Source: a virus. From it: a stretch of DNA of 39,878 nt. A program made the position numbers and the translations under genes. Where the stretch lies: positions 1 to 39,878 of IMG/VR virus record IMGVR_UViG_3300047994_000103; one strand, written 5' to 3'. Below are positions 1-39,878 of this stretch, in pieces (position 1 is the first letter of the stretch; every line of letters begins with the position of its first letter). The notes under the pieces are model-generated. The model was given only the letters and a program-made list of their open reading frames with translations. It made no database searches and was not told where the DNA came from.

Positions 1-127
1 TCTTCCACAAAAGCCGGAGGTGGCTGCAAATACAGCGGCAGATCGTTTCTGTCTGTTTCTGGAAACCAGACCACTGCTCTGTAGCCTTCGCCTTTTTTCA
101 AATACTTCAAGTTCTCCGCACTGGTAA
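1..127. repeat. Terminal overlap, copy 1 (identical to 39752-39878)
   Basis: Bases 1-127 recur base-for-base as the last 127 bases of the window. Confidence 0.97.
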
Positions 128-6094: not shown

Positions 6095-6303
6095 TGTGGG
6101 AAATCCTCGTTAGGTGTGCCTGCTCGGCCTGTGACAATGTCGAGACAGACGCACGCGAAACAGATATCAGGCAAAGCCGGACAACGGTGGCGACGGAGCG
6201 TGGCGGAGCGAGCGTAGGCGCGACGTTCGCCTTCGCCTAGCTCCCGGGCAACACGGAGCGCGCTTGCGCGCAGCTCCGCTTCTTGTTCGTCTTTGGTCGT
6301 CAT
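6091..6303 (-). CDS. Hypothetical protein (70 aa)
   Basis: ORF track; ATGA overlap at 6300-6303 with the upstream gene. Confidence 0.5.
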   Translation of the reverse strand: MTTKDEQEAELRASALRVARELGEGERRAYARSATLRRHRCPALPDICFACVCLDIVTGRAGTPNEDFPQ

Positions 6304-7187
6304 GCCGCTTCATCCGATCCGAAAACGTGGTCCTCGATGCGCCGCAGTTGGTTAGCTGCCCACGACGCGCAGTCGCCTGCGTTGCAGATTGTAGCTGGCG
6401 CGATGACGGTGAAGGCCTGCGGATCGATGTCTTCGATGTCGATCGGCTCGAGCGGTTTTGCGTGGCCGATCGACTCGCCCGCGACGAAATTTTTCGGCAT
6501 ATGATTCCACGCATAGCAAAAAGAAAAGCAGCGAAAGAACGCGGGGCATGCAGTAGATGCTGCGAGCGTGGCAAGGTCGAAGCCGCCGCCGTAGGATTTT
6601 GTAACGGCGCGGATGCAGGACCGATTCGAGTCAGCGGTCCATACCATGCCGCTAACGATCTGCACGTCATAGCCGCTGTCCGTTAGGGACGATGCGAGCG
6701 CGAGCGCCGCTGCACCGCGCCAGAACATCTCTTGTGCGCCCGTGAAGCAATTAGCGCAAGCGTCCACGCCTATCACAACGCGCGTGGGCGCGAACGTGCG
6801 AGTGCGGTGCATACCGCGCCACGCGATGTCTAGCTGGCCGGACCGCACGCGGTCCATGTTTAACTCGTCGCCTTGATCGGTCCAGCGTGCACGGCGACGA
6901 ACATTACGCGAAAGCGGCATCTCGACGGACGCGATGGCGCTTTCGATTTTCGTTGCGCCTTCAGACCATCCCGTGTCCATTAGATTCCGAATGCGATCGC
7001 CGGACTTGAAGGGGAGCGCGTACCACGTTTCCGCGTCCAAGCCGCTGCCGGGTTCATTCCAATAGCTACGTGCCTGTGCGTGCATCGTGCCAGCGCCCGG
7101 CACATTGGCGATGTCCATGAGGGATTGCGCACTGTCGAACGTCACGCGGCCCTGTTTGCCGTTTACTTCGTATGTTGGGATGCTCAT
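6300..7187 (-). CDS. vWA-like partner of the AAA+ ATPase (CobT/ViaA-like; function tentative)
   Basis: 295-aa ORF coupled (TAATG) to the AAA+ gene. The strand RVVIGVDACANC, a following helix and the strand YDVQIVSG resemble a vWA beta-alpha-beta core. The MIDAS site is degenerate (D-A-C-A-N instead of D-x-S-x-S). Confidence 0.5.
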   Translation of the reverse strand: MSIPTYEVNGKQGRVTFDSAQSLMDIANVPGAGTMHAQARSYWNEPGSGLDAETWYALPFKSGDRIRNLMDTGWSEGATKIESAIASVEMPLSRNVRRRARWTDQGDELNMDRVRSGQLDIAWRGMHRTRTFAPTRVVIGVDACANCFTGAQEMFWRGAAALALASSLTDSGYDVQIVSGMVWTADSNRSCIRAVTKSYGGGFDLATLAASTACPAFFRCFSFCYAWNHMPKNFVAGESIGHAKPLEPIDIEDIDPQAFTVIAPATICNAGDCASWAANQLRRIEDHVFGSDEAA

Positions 7188-8524
7188 TAGGCGCGCTCCC
7201 CTACCTTGGCAAGTTCATCCGTGGTCCAGCCATTCAGCAAGTCCCGCTTAATTTCGGACTGAGGGATTCCGGCACTGCGAGCTAGCAGAGCTTTTTGCAA
7301 CATGCGGGTCGATACGACCCGGCGCAGCTTTGCGGATTCTGCGCTGGCGCGGATGCGTGCAACCCATTCACCAAAGTGCCGTATCTCATCGGGAGATGGT
7401 GCATCGGCAGCCTGAAACGGCGTAGCTGCTTTGTAGGGCATTCCGCACAGCGATGCCTCAAATGCTGGATCATAGGTCATCGTGACGATATACCAACGAT
7501 CCAGCGTTGCCGCGTCCAATTGCGAGCGTCCAACATACTGCGAGCCTGCACCGTTGCCGAACGTATTAGCGGCTGCAATCTGCACGGCCTGCGGATGGCG
7601 ATGAAGGCGTGTACCGCTGACCGGATTGTCGAACGCACCGTTGGCCGTGGCCGCATTCAGCGTCAGCAACATGTTCGCATCGCCTGCGTCGATTTCATCG
7701 TGCAGGAACACGCTCGGACGTTCGTAATTCTGACAAAAGACGCTCGATTGATACTCGAACTTGCCTTGTTCGCCAGTCGGCAATAAACGGCCAAGTAACC
7801 ACGACTCGGATGCGCCGGCGCTATATGACAGGGAATTGAACGGGACATTAAGGGCCTTGGCGATCTGCCCGGCGAGGTGCGTTTTGCCACAACCTGCGGG
7901 CCCAACCAGCATCACGTTCAAACCTACCGAACAGAGACGCAAGACTTTCTCGAACAAGGGATGCGCGCCGTCGATGCGGACATCGGGCAGTTCGTGACGC
8001 TTCAACACAATCTCGCGGGCCGGCACGGTGCCATCGCCACGGGGCGCGGCTTTGGCAATTTCTTCCTGTGCGATCTGCCGCACGCGATCCTCGTTGCAGG
8101 CTTCGCTTGCTGCTTGCTGCGCGATCTGCTGGACGAGGGCATCGATTGCACCTTGCGTGGAAGATTGCGGCTTTGGTGCCGGCATGGGGATGCCTTGGCT
8201 TTGGCCTGCGTCAGCCTGCGGCTTGGACTGCGCGCCGTCCATGAAGCGATCCAAGTCCAGCGGTTCGATTTTAGGCTTGCTCGGAGTCTCGCCCTTGGGC
8301 TCGGTCCGCGTGCCTTGCTTCCATTCGCCCGAGACGAAAATGCGCCACGCTTCGGCGCGCTCGTCATCCGTGTAATTGCTGGCGAGATACTCGCGGAATG
8401 CGGCTGCGGTGTTAGTGCGAGGGTCGCGGTGAAAGTCTCCCGCTTCGCCGTGCTTCGGCGCGTGGTCCTTGAGTGTTTTCCCGAGAGCAAGCATTTGACG
8501 ATATGAGAGTGTTTCGAGATTCAT
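7187..8524 (-). CDS. AAA+ ATPase, MoxR/CobS-like (AAA_5 type) with ~190-aa N-terminal extension
   Basis: Walker A LVGPAGCGKTHL and Walker B VFLHDEIDAG. AAANTFGNGAGSQYVGRSQLDAATLDRW resembles the CobS/MoxR sensor region. Confidence 0.85.
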   Translation of the reverse strand: MNLETLSYRQMLALGKTLKDHAPKHGEAGDFHRDPRTNTAAAFREYLASNYTDDERAEAWRIFVSGEWKQGTRTEPKGETPSKPKIEPLDLDRFMDGAQSKPQADAGQSQGIPMPAPKPQSSTQGAIDALVQQIAQQAASEACNEDRVRQIAQEEIAKAAPRGDGTVPAREIVLKRHELPDVRIDGAHPLFEKVLRLCSVGLNVMLVGPAGCGKTHLAGQIAKALNVPFNSLSYSAGASESWLLGRLLPTGEQGKFEYQSSVFCQNYERPSVFLHDEIDAGDANMLLTLNAATANGAFDNPVSGTRLHRHPQAVQIAAANTFGNGAGSQYVGRSQLDAATLDRWYIVTMTYDPAFEASLCGMPYKAATPFQAADAPSPDEIRHFGEWVARIRASAESAKLRRVVSTRMLQKALLARSAGIPQSEIKRDLLNGWTTDELAKVGERA

Positions 8525-8558: not shown

Positions 8559-8834
8559 TTAGCTAAACTGATCGTATGCCGAAGGGATCAGCGCGTTGCA
8601 ATGGGCGCACGTCATGTCTGGCCCTTCCCAGTATATTTCGACGCCTGCGCAGCCCCATCCGCTGTCGTCATTGTCCCGCGTTGCGCGTGCGATCAGCTTA
8701 AACTCGGTGCGGGCGCACGTCGTGCAAAGGCACGCACCGTCCGTCATAACTAGAATTAGCGGATAGCCACCGGGCCAAGCGTAGCGGTTGCGTGCGGCCA
8801 GTTTGATGTCGCGGATGATGGTTTGATTTTTCAT
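8559..8834 (-). CDS. Small zinc-ribbon-like hypothetical protein (91 aa)
   Basis: Track ORF 8559-8921 trimmed to ATG 8834 (AGGA upstream). CTTC ... CAHC cysteine pairs. Confidence 0.6.
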   Translation of the reverse strand: MKNQTIIRDIKLAARNRYAWPGGYPLILVMTDGACLCTTCARTEFKLIARATRDNDDSGWGCAGVEIYWEGPDMTCAHCNALIPSAYDQFS

Positions 8835-8850
8835 TGTTCGAGTGTCCTGT

Positions 8851-9033
8851 TTAGTTAGTGAGTCCGCAAGCAGACTCGAATCGCGAACGGTCGAATGCAG
8901 GGTTGTTGCAACGCAGGGCATCCGAAAGCGCCAGCACCGATCCTTTCCATGCTTGCATAGCCTGCGTGTGGACGGTCAGCGGCTTACTGCGAAACATTGC
9001 TTGTGCAATTGTGACGAAATCGCGTCGTGTCAT
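8851..9033 (-). CDS. Hypothetical protein (60 aa), first gene of the leftward block
   Basis: ORF track; AAGGA upstream. The start region is nearly identical to that of 8559-8834. Confidence 0.55.
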   Translation of the reverse strand: MTRRDFVTIAQAMFRSKPLTVHTQAMQAWKGSVLALSDALRCNNPAFDRSRFESACGLTN

Positions 9034-9227
9034 TGTTCGAGTTTCCTTTTACGGTAGTGGCGAAAGGCGGAATGCCTTGGCCTGTGTAGTTTCATCATCC
9101 CGGAACACTGTGCAACACTTTTTTTTCGTCGATCTGCGTAAGCCTATGATTGTGTTGAAACTGTTTTTTGCCTTGTTTGGTGGGAATTCTCCGAGAACGC
9201 AGTTCTCGCGCTTCAAGTCCTGCAAGG

Positions 9228-9482
9228 ACTTGCGACCGCTTGACGCACCGCTTGAGCGACCACTACTTGCGACCGCTAACAAGGTAAAAGTGGCTTGATC
9301 CCCCTTTTCCCCTTTCGAGTGGTATGTCTTCTCAAAAGAAAAAAAAATCAGAGTACAACTGTACACCATTCTGGGGGAAAGGGGGGATGCAAGCGTTTTC
9401 CCCTGCTTAGGGGTGACGCATTGCGGTTAGTCTAGTGGTCGCAGGTATGGTCGCAAACAGGCCTGCGACGCTTTGCGTCGCA
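9228..9482. repeat. Iteron-like field built on TGCGAC(C)
   Basis: ACTTGCGACCGCT occurs twice (9228-9240, 9265-9277). ACCGCTTGA occurs twice (9235-9243, 9247-9255). TGGTCGCA occurs twice (9436-9443, 9448-9455). Palindrome TGCGACGC-ttt-GCGTCGCA at 9464-9482. The hexamer TGCGAC/GTCGCA appears 6 times. Confidence 0.85.
9300..9386. repeat. Inverted C/G-tract repeat flanking an A-tract
   Basis: CCCCCTTTTCCCC (9300-9312) faces GGGGGAAAGGGGGG (9373-9386). Between them lie AAAAGAAAAAAAAA (9334-9347) and GTACA-ac-TGTAC (9353-9364). Confidence 0.8.
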
Positions 9483-9631
9483 CGGGTGCGGCCCTTGTAT
9501 GTCGCGGCAGCATGCGTTCGTTTGCCACGCTTTGTAGCGCCTCTGGCGCTTGTTCGTGGGGCCTTGGTCCAGTGCCCTGCCGGCCTTCGGCCGCGTACCT
9601 GGTAGCGTTACACTTTTGTGACAATCCTGTG

Positions 9632-9651
9632 TATAATAGGCATGGCCTATT
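9632..9651 (+). promoter_or_regulatory. Perfect -10 hexamer overlapped by a 7-bp-arm palindrome (candidate rightward promoter/operator)
   Basis: TATAAT at 9632-9637. AATAGGC-atg-GCCTATT at 9635-9651. The -35 region is poor (TTACAC at 18 nt). Confidence 0.3.
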
Positions 9652-9701
9652 GCCAGAGCCTTTACCTATGGTTTGTCCCTTGACAATGGAGTTGTCCTAT
9701 A

Positions 9702-9729
9702 ACCATAGGTTTTGCCTATTGTATGTCAA
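9702..9729 (-). promoter_or_regulatory. Candidate leftward sigma70 promoter
   Basis: Minus strand TTGACA (9729-9724), 16-nt spacer, TATGGT (9707-9702). The -10 lies in the right arm of the 10-bp inverted repeat ACCTATGGTT (9664-9673) / AACCATAGGT (9701-9710). Confidence 0.3.
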
Positions 9730-9749
9730 CAAACAATAGTCTTTCTCTA

Positions 9750-9830
9750 TTATCCACAAGTTATCAACAGAAATCTGTGGAAAAGCTGTGCACAACCTGT
9801 GGATATCCTGTTACCAACCTGTGGACAACG
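9750..9830. promoter_or_regulatory. DnaA-box cluster / five tandem 11-bp units (candidate replication origin core)
   Basis: TTATCCACA at 9750-9758 and TTATCAACA at 9761-9769. Units tgtggaaaagc, tgtgcacaacc, tgtggatatcc, tgttaccaacc, tgtggacaacg span 9776-9830. On the complement these give TTTTCCACA, ATATCCACA and TTGTCCACA, exactly 22 bp apart. Confidence 0.6.
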
Positions 9831-9911
9831 TCCACCCCTTGCCGCAGGCAATGGGCCCCGCCCCGGATTGGGTAACACGACTTTCGGGAGCGGCAAAGTT
9901 TTGAAACACCA

Positions 9912-9938
9912 AGGACAGTTTGTGTCCTGCGGACACAA
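9912..9938 (+). promoter_or_regulatory. Two overlapping perfect palindromes (operator or alternative leader hairpins)
   Basis: AGGACA-gtttg-TGTCCT at 9912-9928 and TTGTGTCC-tgc-GGACACAA at 9920-9938. A third TTGTGTCC sits at 9981-9988, just before the SD of the first rightward gene. Confidence 0.45.
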
Positions 9939-10007
9939 CTGCTATCACAGCCGTGCGGGCGCTCGCCCGCGTCCCTTTCATTGTGTCCCTGCCCCGGAGC
10001 CTCCCGC

Positions 10008-10364
10008 ATGTCTTTCAACGCATTCGTCCCGCAGGCTTCGCCAGTTGCAGTTGCGGTCACGACCACGCTCTCGGCACCTATCTTGACAGTTCCCTTGAAT
10101 TTGGCAACAGGGGGCGGCTCGTATCGAGTGTACAATGGAGGCGCGGCGGCGGTGGCTTTCGCCCTGTATGCAAATCAAGCTAATGCCACGGCTTCTCCTT
10201 TTGTTTTTCCCGTCGCAGGCAACCAGCCCCAGACAGGAGTCATGGTGGTTGTGATTAATCCGGGCAACACGGAAGTTTTCAATGGTCCGGCGGGTGCTTG
10301 GGTTCGCGCCATTACGGGAACAGGGACTTCCACGCTGTATGTGCAGACTGGCGAGGGCGTCTAA
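10008..10364 (+). CDS. Small beta-rich hypothetical protein (118 aa), first rightward gene
   Basis: Track ORF 9981-10364 trimmed to ATG 10008 with GGAG (9996-9999) 8 nt upstream. Confidence 0.6.
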   Translation: MSFNAFVPQASPVAVAVTTTLSAPILTVPLNLATGGGSYRVYNGGAAAVAFALYANQANATASPFVFPVAGNQPQTGVMVVVINPGNTEVFNGPAGAWVRAITGTGTSTLYVQTGEGV

Positions 10365-11156
10365 ATGGCAAACCATTCGAGTGGGGGCGGTGGCGGAACG
10401 TCTGGGACCGTTACCGGCGCGAGCAATGAAGGCGCTGGCGTTCCTGTCTATGACTCTGCGAACAGCACGGCATCTAACCTGGCGTTTAAGACGCTGGTCC
10501 AAGGCTCAAATACTGTCCTGACAGATGGCGGCGCTTCTGGCGTCACGGTGGGGGTTGCGGCAAGTCCATCGTTCACGTCAATCCCGGCTGCTGGGGCTAT
10601 TGGCGGAACGACGCCGAGCACTGGTGCGTTTACGACTGTTTCTAGCACTGGAAACGCAACGTTAAACTCGGGTTCTGCTGGAACCGTAACTATCACTGGT
10701 GCAACTACAATCCAATCCGGCAGTGCTGCGACTGTAAGCATAAACAACGCTGCAGCAGCGGGTCAGACTTTCATCGGAAGCGGTTCTAACACTGGCGGCG
10801 TAACAATTGGCAATGCCGCCAACACCACGACTCTAAATTCTTCTTCCGTCAACGTCGCCAACACCGTCAACATCACGACTGCCGGAAAGGGCCTGATGCT
10901 GAAGGAAGGCACTAACGGTCGCTCTGGCACAGCGACCTTGGCAGCAGGCACCGTGACTGTCAGCAACACGACGATCACGGCCTTGAGCCGCGTGTTCCTC
11001 ACCAGCAACGGCCTCAATGGTTCGACGGCTATCGGCACGCTAGACGTGACCAAGATCAACGGGACCGGCTTCACGATCAACTCTTACAGTGCGGCGGCGG
11101 CCATTGTACCGACTGACACGCGCATCGTTCAGTATTTGATTACCGAAGGCGGCTAA
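10365..11156 (+). CDS. Fibre-like Gly/Ser/Thr/Asn/Ala-rich protein (263 aa)
   Basis: TAA-ATG abutting the previous gene. Almost no charged residues, and repetitive G-x-T/S-V-T-I type strands as in fibre or adhesin beta-structures. Confidence 0.6.
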   Translation: MANHSSGGGGGTSGTVTGASNEGAGVPVYDSANSTASNLAFKTLVQGSNTVLTDGGASGVTVGVAASPSFTSIPAAGAIGGTTPSTGAFTTVSSTGNATLNSGSAGTVTITGATTIQSGSAATVSINNAAAAGQTFIGSGSNTGGVTIGNAANTTTLNSSSVNVANTVNITTAGKGLMLKEGTNGRSGTATLAAGTVTVSNTTITALSRVFLTSNGLNGSTAIGTLDVTKINGTGFTINSYSAAAAIVPTDTRIVQYLITEGG

Positions 11157-11184
11157 TTGACAATCTGGTATGTTCTGGTATTGT
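11157..11184 (+). promoter_or_regulatory. Candidate sigma70 promoter immediately after the fibre-like gene stop
   Basis: TTGACA (11157-11162), 16-nt spacer, TATTGT (11179-11184). Confidence 0.45.
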
Positions 11185-31711: not shown

Positions 31712-32899
31712 TTATTTTGTTGCTAGGAAGAAAGTGCCGTCCGCGTAGGTTTTCTGCGTGACGAGTCCAGTTCGACAAGCACTCTTGACGACTTCCTCGA
31801 ACCGAGTCGCCGTCATAAAACGAACAAATGGTTTATAGGCGTCCGCGTAGCTGATTTTCTTTTCCCTCCCGACGAGATTTATAAAATTCTCGATGGCGCG
31901 TGTGTCGTCGGAAAGTCCGATGTGACCGAAGACCTTGGGCATGTCAGTTTCTGCGGCATCCAGCATGGATTTAGCGGTTTCTAACGTTTCAAGAGTGATG
32001 ATTTTGGAATCGCCCTCCGCCGCACTTAGAATCATCGCTAGTTTATGCAAATGGGTTTGTTTGCGCGCAAAGTAGCCTTGAATGTTGTGGTCGCCCTTGT
32101 CGGTGTTATCGTTGTGTTCGGCATACCACGCTTCACCCCATGCGATTGCTTGACGAGTAAGCGAGAATTCCCCTTCAAGCTGTGAGATTGAAAGTAAATC
32201 TTCAACAAGTCGGGGAGCCATTTCTCGTATTTCGGCCGCCCCCGCATGGTAGCCCGGATATGCCATGTAGTGACGTTTCTTTTCCCCATAGACAAACACG
32301 CACCGGGAAGTAAAGCCGCCTCCGATCATATATTGCGGAAACGTGCCACTGATCCATTCGGGAGTAGTACAGCCGAGAATGTTGATCCATGGATTTACGA
32401 TAGATTCATTCCCCATGGTTTTTGTGACCTTCGTCACTTCGCCTCGCCGGCAATCCCATAAATTTACGAGCATGTCGACCATTTGCGTGTCTTGCGGATT
32501 GATGAGATTCCCAAGCTCGCTGGACACGATTGTCATCGCGGACATCTCATCTAGCGTGCCGTCGGCGCGTTCAATAACTGACCGACAGCCCTCGAACGAC
32601 TTAACAAGCGCCTGCCATGTCACCGAGTGTGGGCCGAAAAAAATCTCTGGCAACTGCTTCAAAAGGTCCATTCCAATCGATGCCGTGGTCGACTTCGAGA
32701 CGATCCCGGGCGGAGCAACAAACACAATATAGAAGTTAGGAACCCAATCGAAGTGCCCCATCGAGATTTGGCACCGCCGCCGCATCGCGCCCGCGATGAT
32801 GCTTACTCCGGTCCAGAAGTGGAATTTGTCCGGCGACTCGCTCAACGACGAATACTCCATGTAGGCTCTGAGCAAGTTCGGGTAGTTACGTTTGCTCAA
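31712..32899 (-). CDS. DUF3987-like replication ATPase (putative helicase)
   Basis: 395 aa; TTG start with GGAG 7 nt upstream. P-loop-like VAPPGIVSKST. SELGNL ... LWDCRRGE ... GGGFTSRCVF pattern as in DUF3987 primase-associated ATPases. Confidence 0.5.
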   Translation of the reverse strand: MSKRNYPNLLRAYMEYSSLSESPDKFHFWTGVSIIAGAMRRRCQISMGHFDWVPNFYIVFVAPPGIVSKSTTASIGMDLLKQLPEIFFGPHSVTWQALVKSFEGCRSVIERADGTLDEMSAMTIVSSELGNLINPQDTQMVDMLVNLWDCRRGEVTKVTKTMGNESIVNPWINILGCTTPEWISGTFPQYMIGGGFTSRCVFVYGEKKRHYMAYPGYHAGAAEIREMAPRLVEDLLSISQLEGEFSLTRQAIAWGEAWYAEHNDNTDKGDHNIQGYFARKQTHLHKLAMILSAAEGDSKIITLETLETAKSMLDAAETDMPKVFGHIGLSDDTRAIENFINLVGREKKISYADAYKPFVRFMTATRFEEVVKSACRTGLVTQKTYADGTFFLATK

Positions 32900-35300
32900 A
32901 GAATTTCTCCGGCGAGATGCACTCTCCCCACGACACTGATGACATCTTGCAATCGACCGGGATTACCAGAGGAATTTTGTAGGGAATTTCTACTAACAAA
33001 CACTCCTTGATACGTTGGATGTTTTCAAGTGTACACATCGACTCCGGAATCTGAACCACAACCGAGTCGTGGACTTGCAACAATAATTGCACCCAAAGTA
33101 GCTCTATGGCAATACGCAAGAGCCCCTTGTTGATTGTGATAGCAACAGTAGACTGGCCGACCCACGCAGTTGCCTGCGTCAAAAGCGTTTCGAGCCGGTC
33201 GAAATATATTCGCTGGAATCCCCATCGGTTCTTTACCCGGCGTGTTGTCCGCAAATCTCGGTCGATCGAAGTGTGCCATTGCGGAATCTCCGGGTTTTCT
33301 TTGAAATACCATTTCTTTAGGGCATCGATTTCGCTTCGCGGCAAGCCTGTGTTTGCTGAGATTGTATTTACGCCGCCAACGTAATCGAGGGCATGAGCGA
33401 CGGTTTTCATCGTCTGGCGATCAGGGTGTTTCTTTCCTTGGTAGGGAGTGTTGGTGCGGCGTGCAGCAAGCGTCCCATAAACGTCTTCGCCTGCATCGAT
33501 GATGGCTTGAAGTTTGCGTGCGCCGGATTCTTTGATGACCACGCGCAAGTCGGCTGACGACAAATCGAAGTCGAGAATCACATGGCCCGGGTCGGGGACA
33601 AACATACCACGGACGTTGAGGTCGGAAGATCGGGGGATATTTTGCAAATTCAAGCCCGAGCCGAAAACATTTTGAGACGAGGAGAAGCGGAATGTTTCCG
33701 TTCCGCTTACGTTATAGGAGCAGCGCATCCGGCCGTCTTCGTCGACTTTGGCTTCTAGAAACGTCGAGGAAAAAGTATCAAGGGACGAGTATTCCGCAAG
33801 ATATTCGCACAGCAGTGTCAAGCCCGGTTTCTGGGCCGCAATCTTGACGAGTGCTTCTTCATCGACAGTGGGCTTTTGGGTCTTGCGATTCAGAATCGGC
33901 TTAATGCCCATTTCCCCATAAAACAGCTTTATCATTTGTTGGGGTGAGCGGAACCACTCGGATGTCTTCGGCCCCGAGCCAACACGGTCCCCGACAATCT
34001 CGCGGAAAAACTTTTCCAGCACAGCTTTGCGGTCCCCGATGCGCTTGCGCAGCGCAGCGCGCTGCTGAGAATCAACGCGAACGCCGCGAACCATCATATC
34101 GAGAACTGGATGGAAAAGAGACAATTGAAAGCGATACTGTTCACCTAGCCCCATTTTCTCTACGATCTGTTTGAGGTTTTGCCAGACCTCGTAGGTGTAA
34201 CAAACGTCCTTGCAATTGTATAGCTTGAATTTTTCTTCGTCATCTGGCAGTCGCCGGTAGTCTTTCAACTCGTCCTTCCAATAGCAGTAGGGAGAACCGT
34301 ACATTGACGCTAGAAAGTCGAGAGACTTTTTCTGGCCCGGAAATGCAACGTGCTGCATCCACATTGTGTCATCGGCAATGTGCGCGTAGATGCCGAGATG
34401 GCGAAGGAAGAATTGCGTGTCGTAGTGGAAGTTCTGGCCGATCACGCCGCATTCCGGGTCTTGCATCAGGGCACGCAGTGCCTCCACGATGGCTTGTTCG
34501 TCATCGCGGCTCCAATAACAATTGTCCTCTGTGTATTTGGTCATCAGCGGAATGCACATGGCGTTGTCGACGGAGTTACCAAGGGCGATCAACGAAATGT
34601 TGCGTCCGGTTGTTTCGATGTCGCACGCGAAAGGGCGCTTCGCGGCGCGCAAGTCGGCGAGGTATGTCAATACCTCGGGCAGTGTTGGATTCGTCGAGAA
34701 TTGGTAATCGCGTTCGGGCCACCAGTCGTTCATGGTGCCTTTTTGCGCCTTGCGCAGATCATGGACGGCGATCGATCTCCATGTCCATTGACGCAACACA
34801 AGCTCCGGATGCAGAGTAGGCATTACGCGGCAGATGGGAACGTCCGGCGAAAATATCGGGGCTTTTTCGTCAATCTGCATCATCGAGCCGCGCCACGAAG
34901 TGATAGCGGTCTCTCCTGTCAAGGCCCACAGCGCCGTGCCCCCGAGGGCAATAATCATCTTCGGCTGCATTTCAATAATGAGGGCTTGCAGGTCTTTCAA
35001 ACCTTCGGCAATTTCGGAAGAATAATATACGCCGTGCCACGACTCGAAGCCTTTAGCTTTTCCCTGTGCCGCGCTTTTCGGCATGAAGTTTGTTATGTCA
35101 TTCCCTTCGGGACGCCAGCCCGTGACGTTGGCGAGCCTGCAACGGCCACGCGCGATCCCGGCTTCTGCCAGCATACGGGTCAACTCTTGCCCGCTGACTC
35201 CAACGAAAGGTTGCCCGATTTTCTCCTCATCTGCTCCCGGCGCTTCTCCAACAATCAAAATCTCTGCATCGCGTGGGCCCCAAGCCGGCACCTTAGGCAT
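32886..35300 (-). CDS. Family A DNA polymerase with 3-5 exonuclease and an N-terminal UDG-like domain
   Basis: UDG motifs: GEAPGADEEKIGQPFVGVSG and HPELVLR. Exonuclease motifs: FACDIETTG, NFHYD, YNCKD. Polymerase motifs: A = LDFDLSSADLRV, B = RQTMKTVAHALDYVGG, C = LQVHDS. Confidence 0.93.
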   Translation of the reverse strand: MPKVPAWGPRDAEILIVGEAPGADEEKIGQPFVGVSGQELTRMLAEAGIARGRCRLANVTGWRPEGNDITNFMPKSAAQGKAKGFESWHGVYYSSEIAEGLKDLQALIIEMQPKMIIALGGTALWALTGETAITSWRGSMMQIDEKAPIFSPDVPICRVMPTLHPELVLRQWTWRSIAVHDLRKAQKGTMNDWWPERDYQFSTNPTLPEVLTYLADLRAAKRPFACDIETTGRNISLIALGNSVDNAMCIPLMTKYTEDNCYWSRDDEQAIVEALRALMQDPECGVIGQNFHYDTQFFLRHLGIYAHIADDTMWMQHVAFPGQKKSLDFLASMYGSPYCYWKDELKDYRRLPDDEEKFKLYNCKDVCYTYEVWQNLKQIVEKMGLGEQYRFQLSLFHPVLDMMVRGVRVDSQQRAALRKRIGDRKAVLEKFFREIVGDRVGSGPKTSEWFRSPQQMIKLFYGEMGIKPILNRKTQKPTVDEEALVKIAAQKPGLTLLCEYLAEYSSLDTFSSTFLEAKVDEDGRMRCSYNVSGTETFRFSSSQNVFGSGLNLQNIPRSSDLNVRGMFVPDPGHVILDFDLSSADLRVVIKESGARKLQAIIDAGEDVYGTLAARRTNTPYQGKKHPDRQTMKTVAHALDYVGGVNTISANTGLPRSEIDALKKWYFKENPEIPQWHTSIDRDLRTTRRVKNRWGFQRIYFDRLETLLTQATAWVGQSTVAITINKGLLRIAIELLWVQLLLQVHDSVVVQIPESMCTLENIQRIKECLLVEIPYKIPLVIPVDCKMSSVSWGECISPEKFFEQT

Positions 35301-39360: not shown

Positions 39361-39878
39361 TCACGGCTTAACTCCGGCGGTGGGCGTCCTGGCCATTGCC
39401 GTGTCAACGGCGGAATCAAACGACTCGTCCTCTTTGTCGCCTATTCGCTCCCACAGATCGTCTTGCAGCATCGCTTCTCGGCTGCGCAAAAACCGATACC
39501 GAGCAGCATCCCGCGCATCTGCTGCCAACGTATCGGGTGCGGCGGTGTGAGGGGGCGGGGCAGCGTTGTGAAGCGCCACGATTCGTTGAGCAACGGCCTC
39601 GTCCCAGCAATCGGCGACGTTCAAATTACCGTCCTCATCGCTTCCTTGAGACATGACCATCGATCCGTCCGCGTACCAGTGGCCGACATCCCCTTCATCG
39701 TCGAGCGGCGGTTTGGGGGAAAAGCGCTTTGATTTATGCGGATGAAACTTATCTTCCACAAAAGCCGGAGGTGGCTGCAAATACAGCGGCAGATCGTTTC
39801 TGTCTGTTTCTGGAAACCAGACCACTGCTCTGTAGCCTTCGCCTTTTTTCAAATACTTCAAGTTCTCCGCACTGGTAA
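39361..39878 (-). CDS. 3-prime part of the junction-spanning 359-codon gene (see 1-689)
   Basis: The frame stays open from stop 39361-39363 to the window edge. The track start at 39861 is only a TTG inside the frame. Ends with the RYRFLRSRE...SAVDTAMA motif. Confidence 0.65.
   Translation of the reverse strand, partial: TSAENLKYLKKGEGYRAVVWFPETDRNDLPLYLQPPPAFVEDKFHPHKSKRFSPKPPLDDEGDVGHWYADGSMVMSQGSDEDGNLNVADCWDEAVAQRIVALHNAAPPPHTAAPDTLAADARDAARYRFLRSREAMLQDDLWERIGDKEDESFDSAVDTAMARTPTAGVKP
39752..39878. repeat. Terminal overlap, copy 2 (identical to 1-127)
   Basis: Same 127 bases as the window start; lies inside an open reading frame. Confidence 0.97.

Follow-up and report, generated by a model that had tools for sequence, protein, structure and literature searches.

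Clusters of DnaA boxes are well known at chromosomal origins and at some plasmid and prophage origins, and the iteron-type origins with flanking DnaA boxes include P1 oriR, pSC101 and RK2. A cluster of DnaA-box-like sites was analyzed in the IMG/VR virus record IMGVR_UViG_3300047994_000103, taken over its full length of 39,878 nucleotides (hereafter the window), where nine such 9-mers lie between positions 9617 and 9830 of a divergent control region. Judged by its sequence, the element is a phage-carried, oriC-like DnaA assembly region with DnaA as its predicted ligand, a reading given a probability of about 0.85.

Several described systems serve for comparison with this element. In E. coli oriC, clusters of four sites at 2-bp spacing permit cooperative filling by DnaA (PMC6070618), and the arrays run from R1 to I2 and from R4 to C3 (Rozgaja et al. 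2011, as summarised in PMC6070618). The bacterial basal unwinding system consists of tandem boxes, a GC-rich spacer of at most 16 bp, at least three DnaA-trios (NAN) and then an AT-rich region (PMC8287927). In the iss region of phage T5, which is not considered an origin, boxes occur in pairs 3 bp apart, and the pairs are embedded in inverted repeats within the terminal repeat (bioRxiv 10.1101/866236). DARS elements have oppositely oriented boxes 5 bp apart together with a head-to-tail neighbour (PMC6868365).

Boxes in the window were scored against the relaxed consensus TTWTNCACA. Seven of the nine sites form two opposed head-to-tail runs, of two and then five boxes, with 2-bp spacers throughout. 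The left array, on the plus strand, begins with the perfect box TTATCCACA (9750–9758, an exact match) and continues, after the spacer ag, with TTATCAACA (9761–9769, one mismatch). It faces the main array, and the two converge across a 6-bp gap. The main array (9776–9830, minus strand) comprises five head-to-tail 11-bp units, each a 9-mer plus a 2-bp spacer that is mostly CC. The units start at 9776, 9787, 9798, 9809 and 9820 and read, in order, tgtggaaaagc, tgtgcacaacc, tgtggatatcc, tgttaccaacc and tgtggacaacg. On the minus strand the corresponding boxes are TTTTCCACA, TTGTGCACA, ATATCCACA, TTGGTAACA and TTGTCCACA, with 0, 1, 1, 3 and 1 mismatches, respectively, so stronger and weaker boxes alternate. 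Tandem Repeats Finder reported a period of 11 and 5.0 copies at 9775–9829, with the consensus CTGTGGACAAC.

A further pair lies upstream in the same orientation as the main array and in an 11-bp register, namely tgtgacaat, or ATTGTCACA on the minus strand (9617–9625, two mismatches), and tgtgtataa, or TTATACACA (9628–9636, minus strand, full match). This pair had been overlooked in an earlier sequence-only reading of the window, whose coordinates for TTATCCACA, the following box and the five 11-bp units were all confirmed when the sequence was read again. Over about 200 bp there are exact consensus matches at 9628, 9750 and 9776 and one-mismatch sites at 9761, 9787, 9798 and 9820.

Variation within the array is concentrated at box positions 3 and 5, while T2 and ACA7–9 are constant. 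Positions 3 and 5 are those that the DnaA consensus tolerates. The one-turn phasing proposed earlier is real, and in their variable positions, their 9 + 2 geometry and their survival in two relatives the 9-mers behave as true DnaA boxes.

The cluster was compared with 2000 first-order Markov genomes. Sites within one mismatch of TTATCCACA number 14 in the genome against 6.5 expected, six of them within 9628–9828, and exact TTWTNCACA matches number five genome-wide, three of them within 9628–9784. In 210-bp windows of the null genomes the largest cluster held four sites (one occurrence) and clusters of at least three arose in 0.6%, compared with six in the observed cluster. The five phased units have a mismatch sum of 9, whereas the sums in the null genomes averaged 20.6 and never fell below 15. 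Chance was ruled out by this simulation, and a coding repeat by the period of 11 and the lack of any called gene in 9034–10007 (public gene calls). The array is real, conserved and far beyond chance, and its geometry is oriC-like.

No close relative was found in GenBank phages or IMG/VR. Window positions 9000–10600 had no match by DNA similarity among GenBank phages, and neither the exact nor a degenerate form of the local pattern was found in IMG/VR. The nearest phages by large terminase (TerL) are the metagenomic phages L012–L015, from four samples (61% TerL identity), and L018 (56%). The intergenic DNA of the L014-type phages and of L018 is unalignable with that of the window. In both, all three sites per contig within one mismatch fall in the intergenic region, and one is a perfect TTATCCACA. 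The L014 boxes are cTATCAACA (plus strand) at 610, a perfect TGTGGATAA at 641 and TGTGGATAT-gt-TGTGGATAT at 750/761; those of L018 are TTATCCACA, ATATCCACA and TTATGCACA (plus strand) at 84–138 and ccTGTGCATATccTGTTGATAT at 426–445.

The window, the L014-type phages and L018 all have plus-oriented boxes at the left of the region, TGTG-oriented boxes at its right and a pair phased at 11 bp by a 2-bp spacer. Motif, orientation and spacer were kept while the surroundings diverged, which argues for a slowly evolving host ligand rather than a fast-evolving phage protein. Conservation, proposed in the sequence-only reading as a check, holds in part: the motif, orientation and phased pair recur in these two lineages, whereas relatives by replication module and more distant TerL relatives lack the cluster.

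The same geometry was found far beyond these relatives. When IMG/VR was scanned for the three-unit phased pattern TGTGNANAA with 2-bp spacers, at least 120 contigs matched, nearly all of them with true (C)CTGTGGATAAC runs of 3–8 units. At least 118 unique, unrelated viral loci (L019–L138), with GC contents of 25–68%, carry phased TGTGGATAA arrays. These are often joined by oppositely oriented TTATCCACAgg units, and in a subset of loci a G-run lies no more than about 130 bp downstream. Among the matches listed, the arrays most often occupy a divergent intergenic region upstream of a terminase operon. Thirty-two of the loci form a single group of T7-like phages without an RNA polymerase, which encode a gp4-like primase-helicase and PolA. 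In this group the array lies 200–460 bp upstream of an operon that begins with an AT-hook protein of about 130 aa, followed by M15 peptidase, TerL and portal genes. On the other side of the array are genes for GP88, the T7 gp4-like primase-helicase, PolA and endonucleases, and some loci of the group carry about 14 boxes per 200 bp in both orientations.

Among GenBank phages, megablast with a synthetic array found nothing, a result in which the low-complexity filter may have masked matches, and tblastn with the array-linked protein of about 130 aa also found nothing. No description of phased DnaA-box arrays in phage control regions was found in the searchable literature.

Perfect triple phased arrays are also present in at least 120 bacterial contigs (L150–L269) from many phyla. 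A DnaA-like open reading frame (ORF) adjoins the array in 36 of the 120 listed, which marks these as chromosomal origin regions. The 3.8-kb iteron plasmid pSOE2 (L194, 3250–3670) combines a RepA-like gene and 22-bp iterons with two runs of 8–9 phased TTATCCACAgg units. The shared geometry at bacterial dnaA loci, in pSOE2 and in oriC points to a bona fide DnaA assembly platform that phages have adopted repeatedly. By its sequence, the window array is one degenerate member of a widespread class in phage control regions.

Host DnaA is the predicted ligand because the same arrays recur in the at least 118 unrelated viral contigs, across their whole GC range, and beside bacterial dnaA. The sequence-only reading had offered as an alternative that the units are iterons for a phage protein with a DnaA-box-like site; an example would be a protein limited to DnaA domain IV, as in HTVC010P-type pelagiphages. 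Such proteins are known (PF08299 in pelagiphages, PMC8477408), and most early proteins of the present phage are unannotated. However, PF08299 (DnaA domain IV) had no match in any scanned early protein, and neither the window nor any of the 120 listed viral loci with arrays contains a DHTTV-type signature ORF. Given that motif and spacing are identical in unrelated phages and at dnaA loci, a phage-encoded binder is highly improbable.

The array lies in a distinctive genomic position. The first and last 127 bp of the window (1–127 and 39752–39878) are identical and a second public contig of the same phage spans the junction, so the window represents a complete, circularly assembled genome of about 39.75 kb (about 39,751 bp). 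The assembly is circular or circularly permuted, and a 369-aa gene of unknown function crosses the end junction. Minus-strand genes run leftwards from 9033, across the junction, to 31712. Plus-strand genes, which encode terminase, P22-type portal and coat proteins and tail proteins, run from 10008 to about 31.7 kb. All genes point away from the control region, and on the circular map the two blocks meet near 31.7 kb. The genome lacks integrase and partition genes, and the phage looks lytic.

The control region itself (9034–10007, 974 bp) extends from the first leftward early gene, which starts at 9033, to the ATG of the first rightward gene at 10008. It is the only large non-coding region of the genome, and iteron-like repeats occur in no other gap. 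Positions 9685–9784 are 67% AT over 100 bp and form a candidate unwinding element. The 60 bp at 9717–9776, with 72% AT, are the second most AT-rich window of that size in the genome and include two boxes and promoter matches. In E. coli oriC, the unwinding element adjoins box R1, on the side that matches the AT-rich flank of the TGTGGA-oriented array here.

Two promoter matches, scored on the sigma-70 consensus, stand back-to-back at 9702–9753 with a common −35 region and are the only sigma-70-like matches in 8800–10200. The leftward match is TTGACA-16-TATGGT (9729 to 9702, minus strand) and the rightward one TCAACA-16-TATTAT (9726–9753, plus strand); both are consensus matches only. The −10 element of the latter overlaps the perfect box TTATCCACA, and the array would make up the first 70 transcribed bases. 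This arrangement would suit a transcription switch that senses DnaA, in which array-bound DnaA controls the divergent promoters and the rightward one is repressed until phage copies dilute DnaA, or in step with the host DnaA-ATP level. CtrA boxes in phages of Alphaproteobacteria and DnaA on lambda pR are analogues, and phages with sites for a host cell-cycle master regulator have precedent (PMC9437464).

The placement of the array in an early/late control region, near palindromic operator-like sites, also fits a switch, as does the orientation bias of the viral arrays relative to flanking genes (right-hand gene on the plus strand at 72 loci vs 32, among the matches listed). Nevertheless, the strong late promoter of the relatives (TTGACA-N17-TACAAT) lies about 170–200 bp downstream of the boxes without overlap, and across the viral class TTGAC[AT] peaks 150–190 bp downstream of the arrays. 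The promoters of the window are predictions from consensus matches, and an operator needs far less than five phased units. A switch of this kind is considered unlikely.

The replication genes bear on the function of the array as a possible origin. The minus-strand early genes encode a CobS-like AAA+ ATPase, a DUF7192 protein, a PD-(D/E)XK exonuclease, a Sak4-like ATPase, UDG-PolA and a DUF3987 helicase that matches the PHROG 'DNA primase' (E 1.9e-85). Neither an origin-binding initiator nor a primase catalytic domain nor a protein with DnaA domain IV was detected among the phage proteins. The early genes gave no match to Rep, RepA, lambda O-like or other initiator families in Pfam, PHROGs and NCBIfam, many of the proteins remaining unannotated, and PDB and NCBIfam left the annotation of the DUF3987 protein and of the unknown early proteins unchanged. 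The statement in the sequence-only reading that the genome has no recognisable initiator or primase is therefore upheld for initiators and primase catalytic domains and has to be qualified by the presence of the DUF3987 helicase, with its 'DNA primase' match, and of UDG-PolA.

UDG-PolA is an 804-aa protein (32886–35300, minus strand) that unites a uracil-DNA-glycosylase-superfamily domain, a 3'-5' exonuclease and a family A polymerase. The fusion is also found in MW202489 and in Microcystis phage Mel-JY34.

Five observations suggest an origin: the control region is the sole repeat-rich non-coding region, it has an AT-rich neighbour to the array, the genes are laid out divergently around it, no initiator was detected, and the same arrays occur in proven origins. 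On this basis the array is tentatively assigned as an auxiliary origin element, with a probability of about 0.4. Host DnaA would bind first at the high-affinity boxes TTATCCACA (9750), TTTTCCACA (9776) and TTATACACA (9628). The weaker neighbouring boxes would then be filled cooperatively, the 2-bp spacers setting successive protomers head-to-tail, and the outcome would be a five-protomer DnaA oligomer opposite a two-protomer one. The oligomer could help to open the adjoining AT-rich promoter stretch (about 9685–9775), a step to which transcription from the back-to-back promoters may contribute. Next, either the DUF3987 helicase of the phage or DnaB of the host would be loaded, and UDG-PolA would copy the circle bidirectionally, along the transcription direction of each operon, as far as the point near 31.7 kb where the operons converge. 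DnaA binding, unwinding, helicase loading and origin function are all inferred here from sequence features, and calling the array an origin is reasonable in that predictive sense.

Several observations weigh against such an origin. No DnaA-trio or GC-spacer arrangement follows either array, as read in both directions from the boxes. Downstream of TTATCCACA-ag-TTATCAACA comes the opposed array, and on the minus strand past the five-unit array there are 26 bp of gap and inverted boxes and then TAG AGA AAG ACT, which contains no NAN run. Two inverted boxes also separate the five-unit array from the AT-rich stretch, unlike the situation in E. coli oriC. Across the 118 viral loci listed, there is no consistent or asymmetric AT-rich flank on either side of the arrays.

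Cumulative GC skew is near its maximum at 9–15 kb, peaking at the array with no trough, and it tracks gene orientation and hence the direction of transcription. The skew analysis proposed in the sequence-only reading therefore does not mark the site as an origin, although skew is a weak test for a 40-kb phage.

Relatives that share the replication module form a further point. MW202489 and Mel-JY34 (PolA 40% and 35% identical, DUF3987 about 50%) have no DnaA-box cluster in the corresponding intergenic region, and neither do L270 and L017 (DUF3987 65% and 58% identical). DUF3987 identity spans 47–65% across the module-sharing phages without boxes, which indicates that the replication module does not need DnaA. 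TerL relatives at 36–46% identity likewise lack the cluster, and searches with PolA and TerL in IMG/VR and JGI metagenomes returned distant relatives only, without boxes. In addition, any of the many unannotated early proteins could be the real initiator, acting for example at a conserved hairpin described below. The earlier proposal of an origin dependent on host DnaA thus keeps the identity and phasing of its boxes, while the lack of a DnaA-trio, the unsupportive GC skew and the module relatives without boxes tell against it.

The hairpin is a long, GC-clamped structure at 9300–9386 (plus strand), built of a C-run, an A9 tract and a G-run, with a folding energy as DNA of −21.3 kcal/mol (z = −4.1). 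Throughout the PolA/DUF3987 clade, relatives without boxes included, the divergent early/late region contains a C-run/A8–18/G-run element, which invariably lies on the late-gene strand. Copies were located in L014 (284–394), L270 (4122–4217), L017 (8225–8299), L009 (3553–3640), L003 (38441–38558) and L142 (1186–1331). The pattern has eight matches in 0.38 Mb of relatives, compared with one in 1.97 Mb of unrelated loci. For this hairpin, Rfam returned only spurious miRNA-like matches, which were rejected.

Since the hairpin is clade-wide and the boxes are not, the hairpin appears to form the deep core of the control region and the array to have been added in particular lineages. The hairpin may be the core cis element, assisted by the DnaA array; its candidate roles include those of an origin core and a leader RNA.

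That the array is optional in the clade and independent of the replication module is what would be expected of a DnaA sink or modulator resembling datA or DARS. Here amplified phage DNA would soak up DnaA or alter its nucleotide state, with the effect that host initiation is blocked or DnaA-controlled genes are derepressed, and the array would have no part in phage initiation. The arrays in T7-like phages that lack an RNA polymerase and have their own primase-helicase and PolA agree with this, as do the roughly 14 boxes per 200 bp at some viral loci. The opposed arrays 6 bp apart also recall DARS boxes I and II, which are oppositely oriented and 5 bp apart (PMC6868365). Titration alone, however, requires no exact 2-bp phasing, fixed orientation or placement in a control region, and a single infecting genome titrates little before replicating. 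A pure sink or modulator is regarded as unlikely.

A broader proposal is that phased arrays are a widespread phage device to hijack or sense the host initiator, working as a trap or timer in lytic phages with their own replisomes; this is doubtful. As a trap of the datA/DARS type, the array may shut off or re-programme host initiation. As a timer, it may let copy number or the cell cycle gate the early-to-late switch.

In the relatives and in the 32 viral loci listed, the arrays precede the terminase operon, lying 200–460 bp upstream of its first gene, which would also be compatible with a cis site for another DNA transaction. Candidates are recognition by terminase (pac) and, by way of membrane-bound DnaA, the tethering of DNA to the membrane or a stop in injection, as has been suggested for T5 iss. 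The FST non-coding region of T5, with eight paired DnaA boxes, is not an origin and provides a parallel, but that model is a proposal and its pairs have a 3-bp gap (bioRxiv 10.1101/866236). A motif read by terminase should follow the fast-diverging small terminase, whereas the DnaA box is constant across unrelated terminases, and in the window two extra genes stand between the array and the small terminase gene. Such a role is quite improbable.

These two genes (10008–11156, plus strand) are rich in Gly, Ala, Thr and Ser and encode 118 and 263 aa. The nearest relatives have no such genes in this place, the small terminase gene being the first after the control region. A second sigma-70-like promoter match, TTGACA-16-TATTGT (11157–11184), precedes the small terminase gene in the window.

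The pair of genes for the CobS-like AAA+ ATPase and the DUF7192 protein (6300–8524, minus strand) is a mobile module, with 46–59% identity in L002 and L005–L008. The structural and replication genes of these phages are otherwise unrelated to those of the window, and they were rejected as true relatives, only the CobS/DUF7192 module being in common. At 9805–9828, about 170 bp upstream of the CobS-like gene, L005 carries two perfect tandem copies of the window consensus unit (ccTGTGGACAAccTGTGGACAA); among L002 and L005–L008, two tandem boxes are present in L005 only. A CobS-like N-terminus of the first leftward L014 gene was an impression by eye, unsupported in BLASTP, and no claim is made for it.

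Other repeats are present in the control region. The motif (T)TGCGACC (TTGCGACC) occurs in two direct copies (9230–9237 and 9267–9274, plus strand) and two inverted copies on the minus strand (TGCGACC at 9437–9443 and TTGCGACC at 9449–9456). These copies flank the long hairpin, four of the seven genome copies of the 7-mer lie in the control region, and they may be binding sites for a phage protein. The four copies of TTGCGACC (9230, 9267, 9437 and 9449, the last two as reverse complements), together with three of GCCTATT and three of TTGTGTCC, are enriched in the control region and form no regular iteron array. A GC-rich stretch lies between the inverted TGCGACC copies and the upstream box pair.

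Closer to the promoters, two 15-bp palindromes of the form ATAGG-N5-CCTAT, ATAGGCATGGCCTAT (9636–9650) and ATAGGTTTTGCCTAT (9705–9719), stand 69 bp apart around the predicted divergent promoters, and an inverted repeat is formed by ACCTATGGTT (9664–9673) and AACCATAGGT (9701–9710). By their sequence, the palindromes and inverted repeat of 9636–9719 look like repressor operators. Past the array, the palindrome TTGTGTCC-tgc-GGACACAA (9920–9938) and a third TTGTGTCC copy (9981–9988) bracket a terminator-like hairpin (9953–9972), which lies 35 bp upstream of the first rightward gene. The element at 9920–9988 may be an attenuator or an antitermination site.

What distinguishes the locus is an oriC-style cooperative array in the control region of a lytic-looking phage with its own helicase and polymerase. 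Should DnaA act to open such phage origins, the arrays would explain how replication starts in phages without an initiator or RNA polymerase of their own; if the arrays trap or sense DnaA, they would represent a new mechanism of host takeover or timing. Under either reading, the sites are a simple sequence marker by which candidate origin or control regions of phages can be recognised, and they connect phage development with the host cell cycle in a direct and testable manner.

Comparison with the described systems shows likeness and difference in each case. Like the CtrA-box phages of Alphaproteobacteria (PMC9437464), the present phage has sites for a host cell-cycle master regulator in a control region. 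Both the regulator and the motif differ, however, and the CtrA sites are promoter-proximal pairs of half-sites rather than phased multi-unit arrays. The window and the T5 iss region both have consensus and near-consensus boxes, TTATCAACA among them, which lie in an extensive non-coding stretch of a virulent phage and are retained by relatives. The window differs in its 2-bp spacers, its runs of two and five boxes, its position at the point of early/late divergence and the absence of a terminal-repeat context. The region does not belong to the T5 iss type, the 127-bp end overlap of the window marking circular assembly only.

The opposed arrays with their 6-bp gap resemble datA, DARS1 and DARS2 in box layout. 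Those loci are defined by IHF and Fis sites and by flanking regulatory regions, and in box number and context they differ from the phage array. Iteron-type origins are similar in being parts of an extrachromosomal replicon that combines DnaA boxes with other repeats and an AT-rich region, and pSOE2 has the same 11-bp phasing. In contrast to such origins, no Rep initiator gene was detected beside the array, and the four TTGCGACC and three GCCTATT copies are candidate iterons only.

The differences from E. coli oriC lie in context and in box strength. The phage array has no DnaA-trio, 13-mer unwinding element or dnaA/gidA/mioC surroundings, and it is carried by a phage with its own helicase and polymerase. 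Seven of the nine phage sites are within one mismatch of the consensus and would be much stronger than the I, tau and C sites of oriC. The arrays of E. coli oriC diverge, whereas those of the phage converge. Shared by the two are same-orientation 9-mers at 2-bp spacing, strong anchor boxes beside weaker sites, two opposed arrays and an AT-rich stretch beside the TGTGGA-oriented array.

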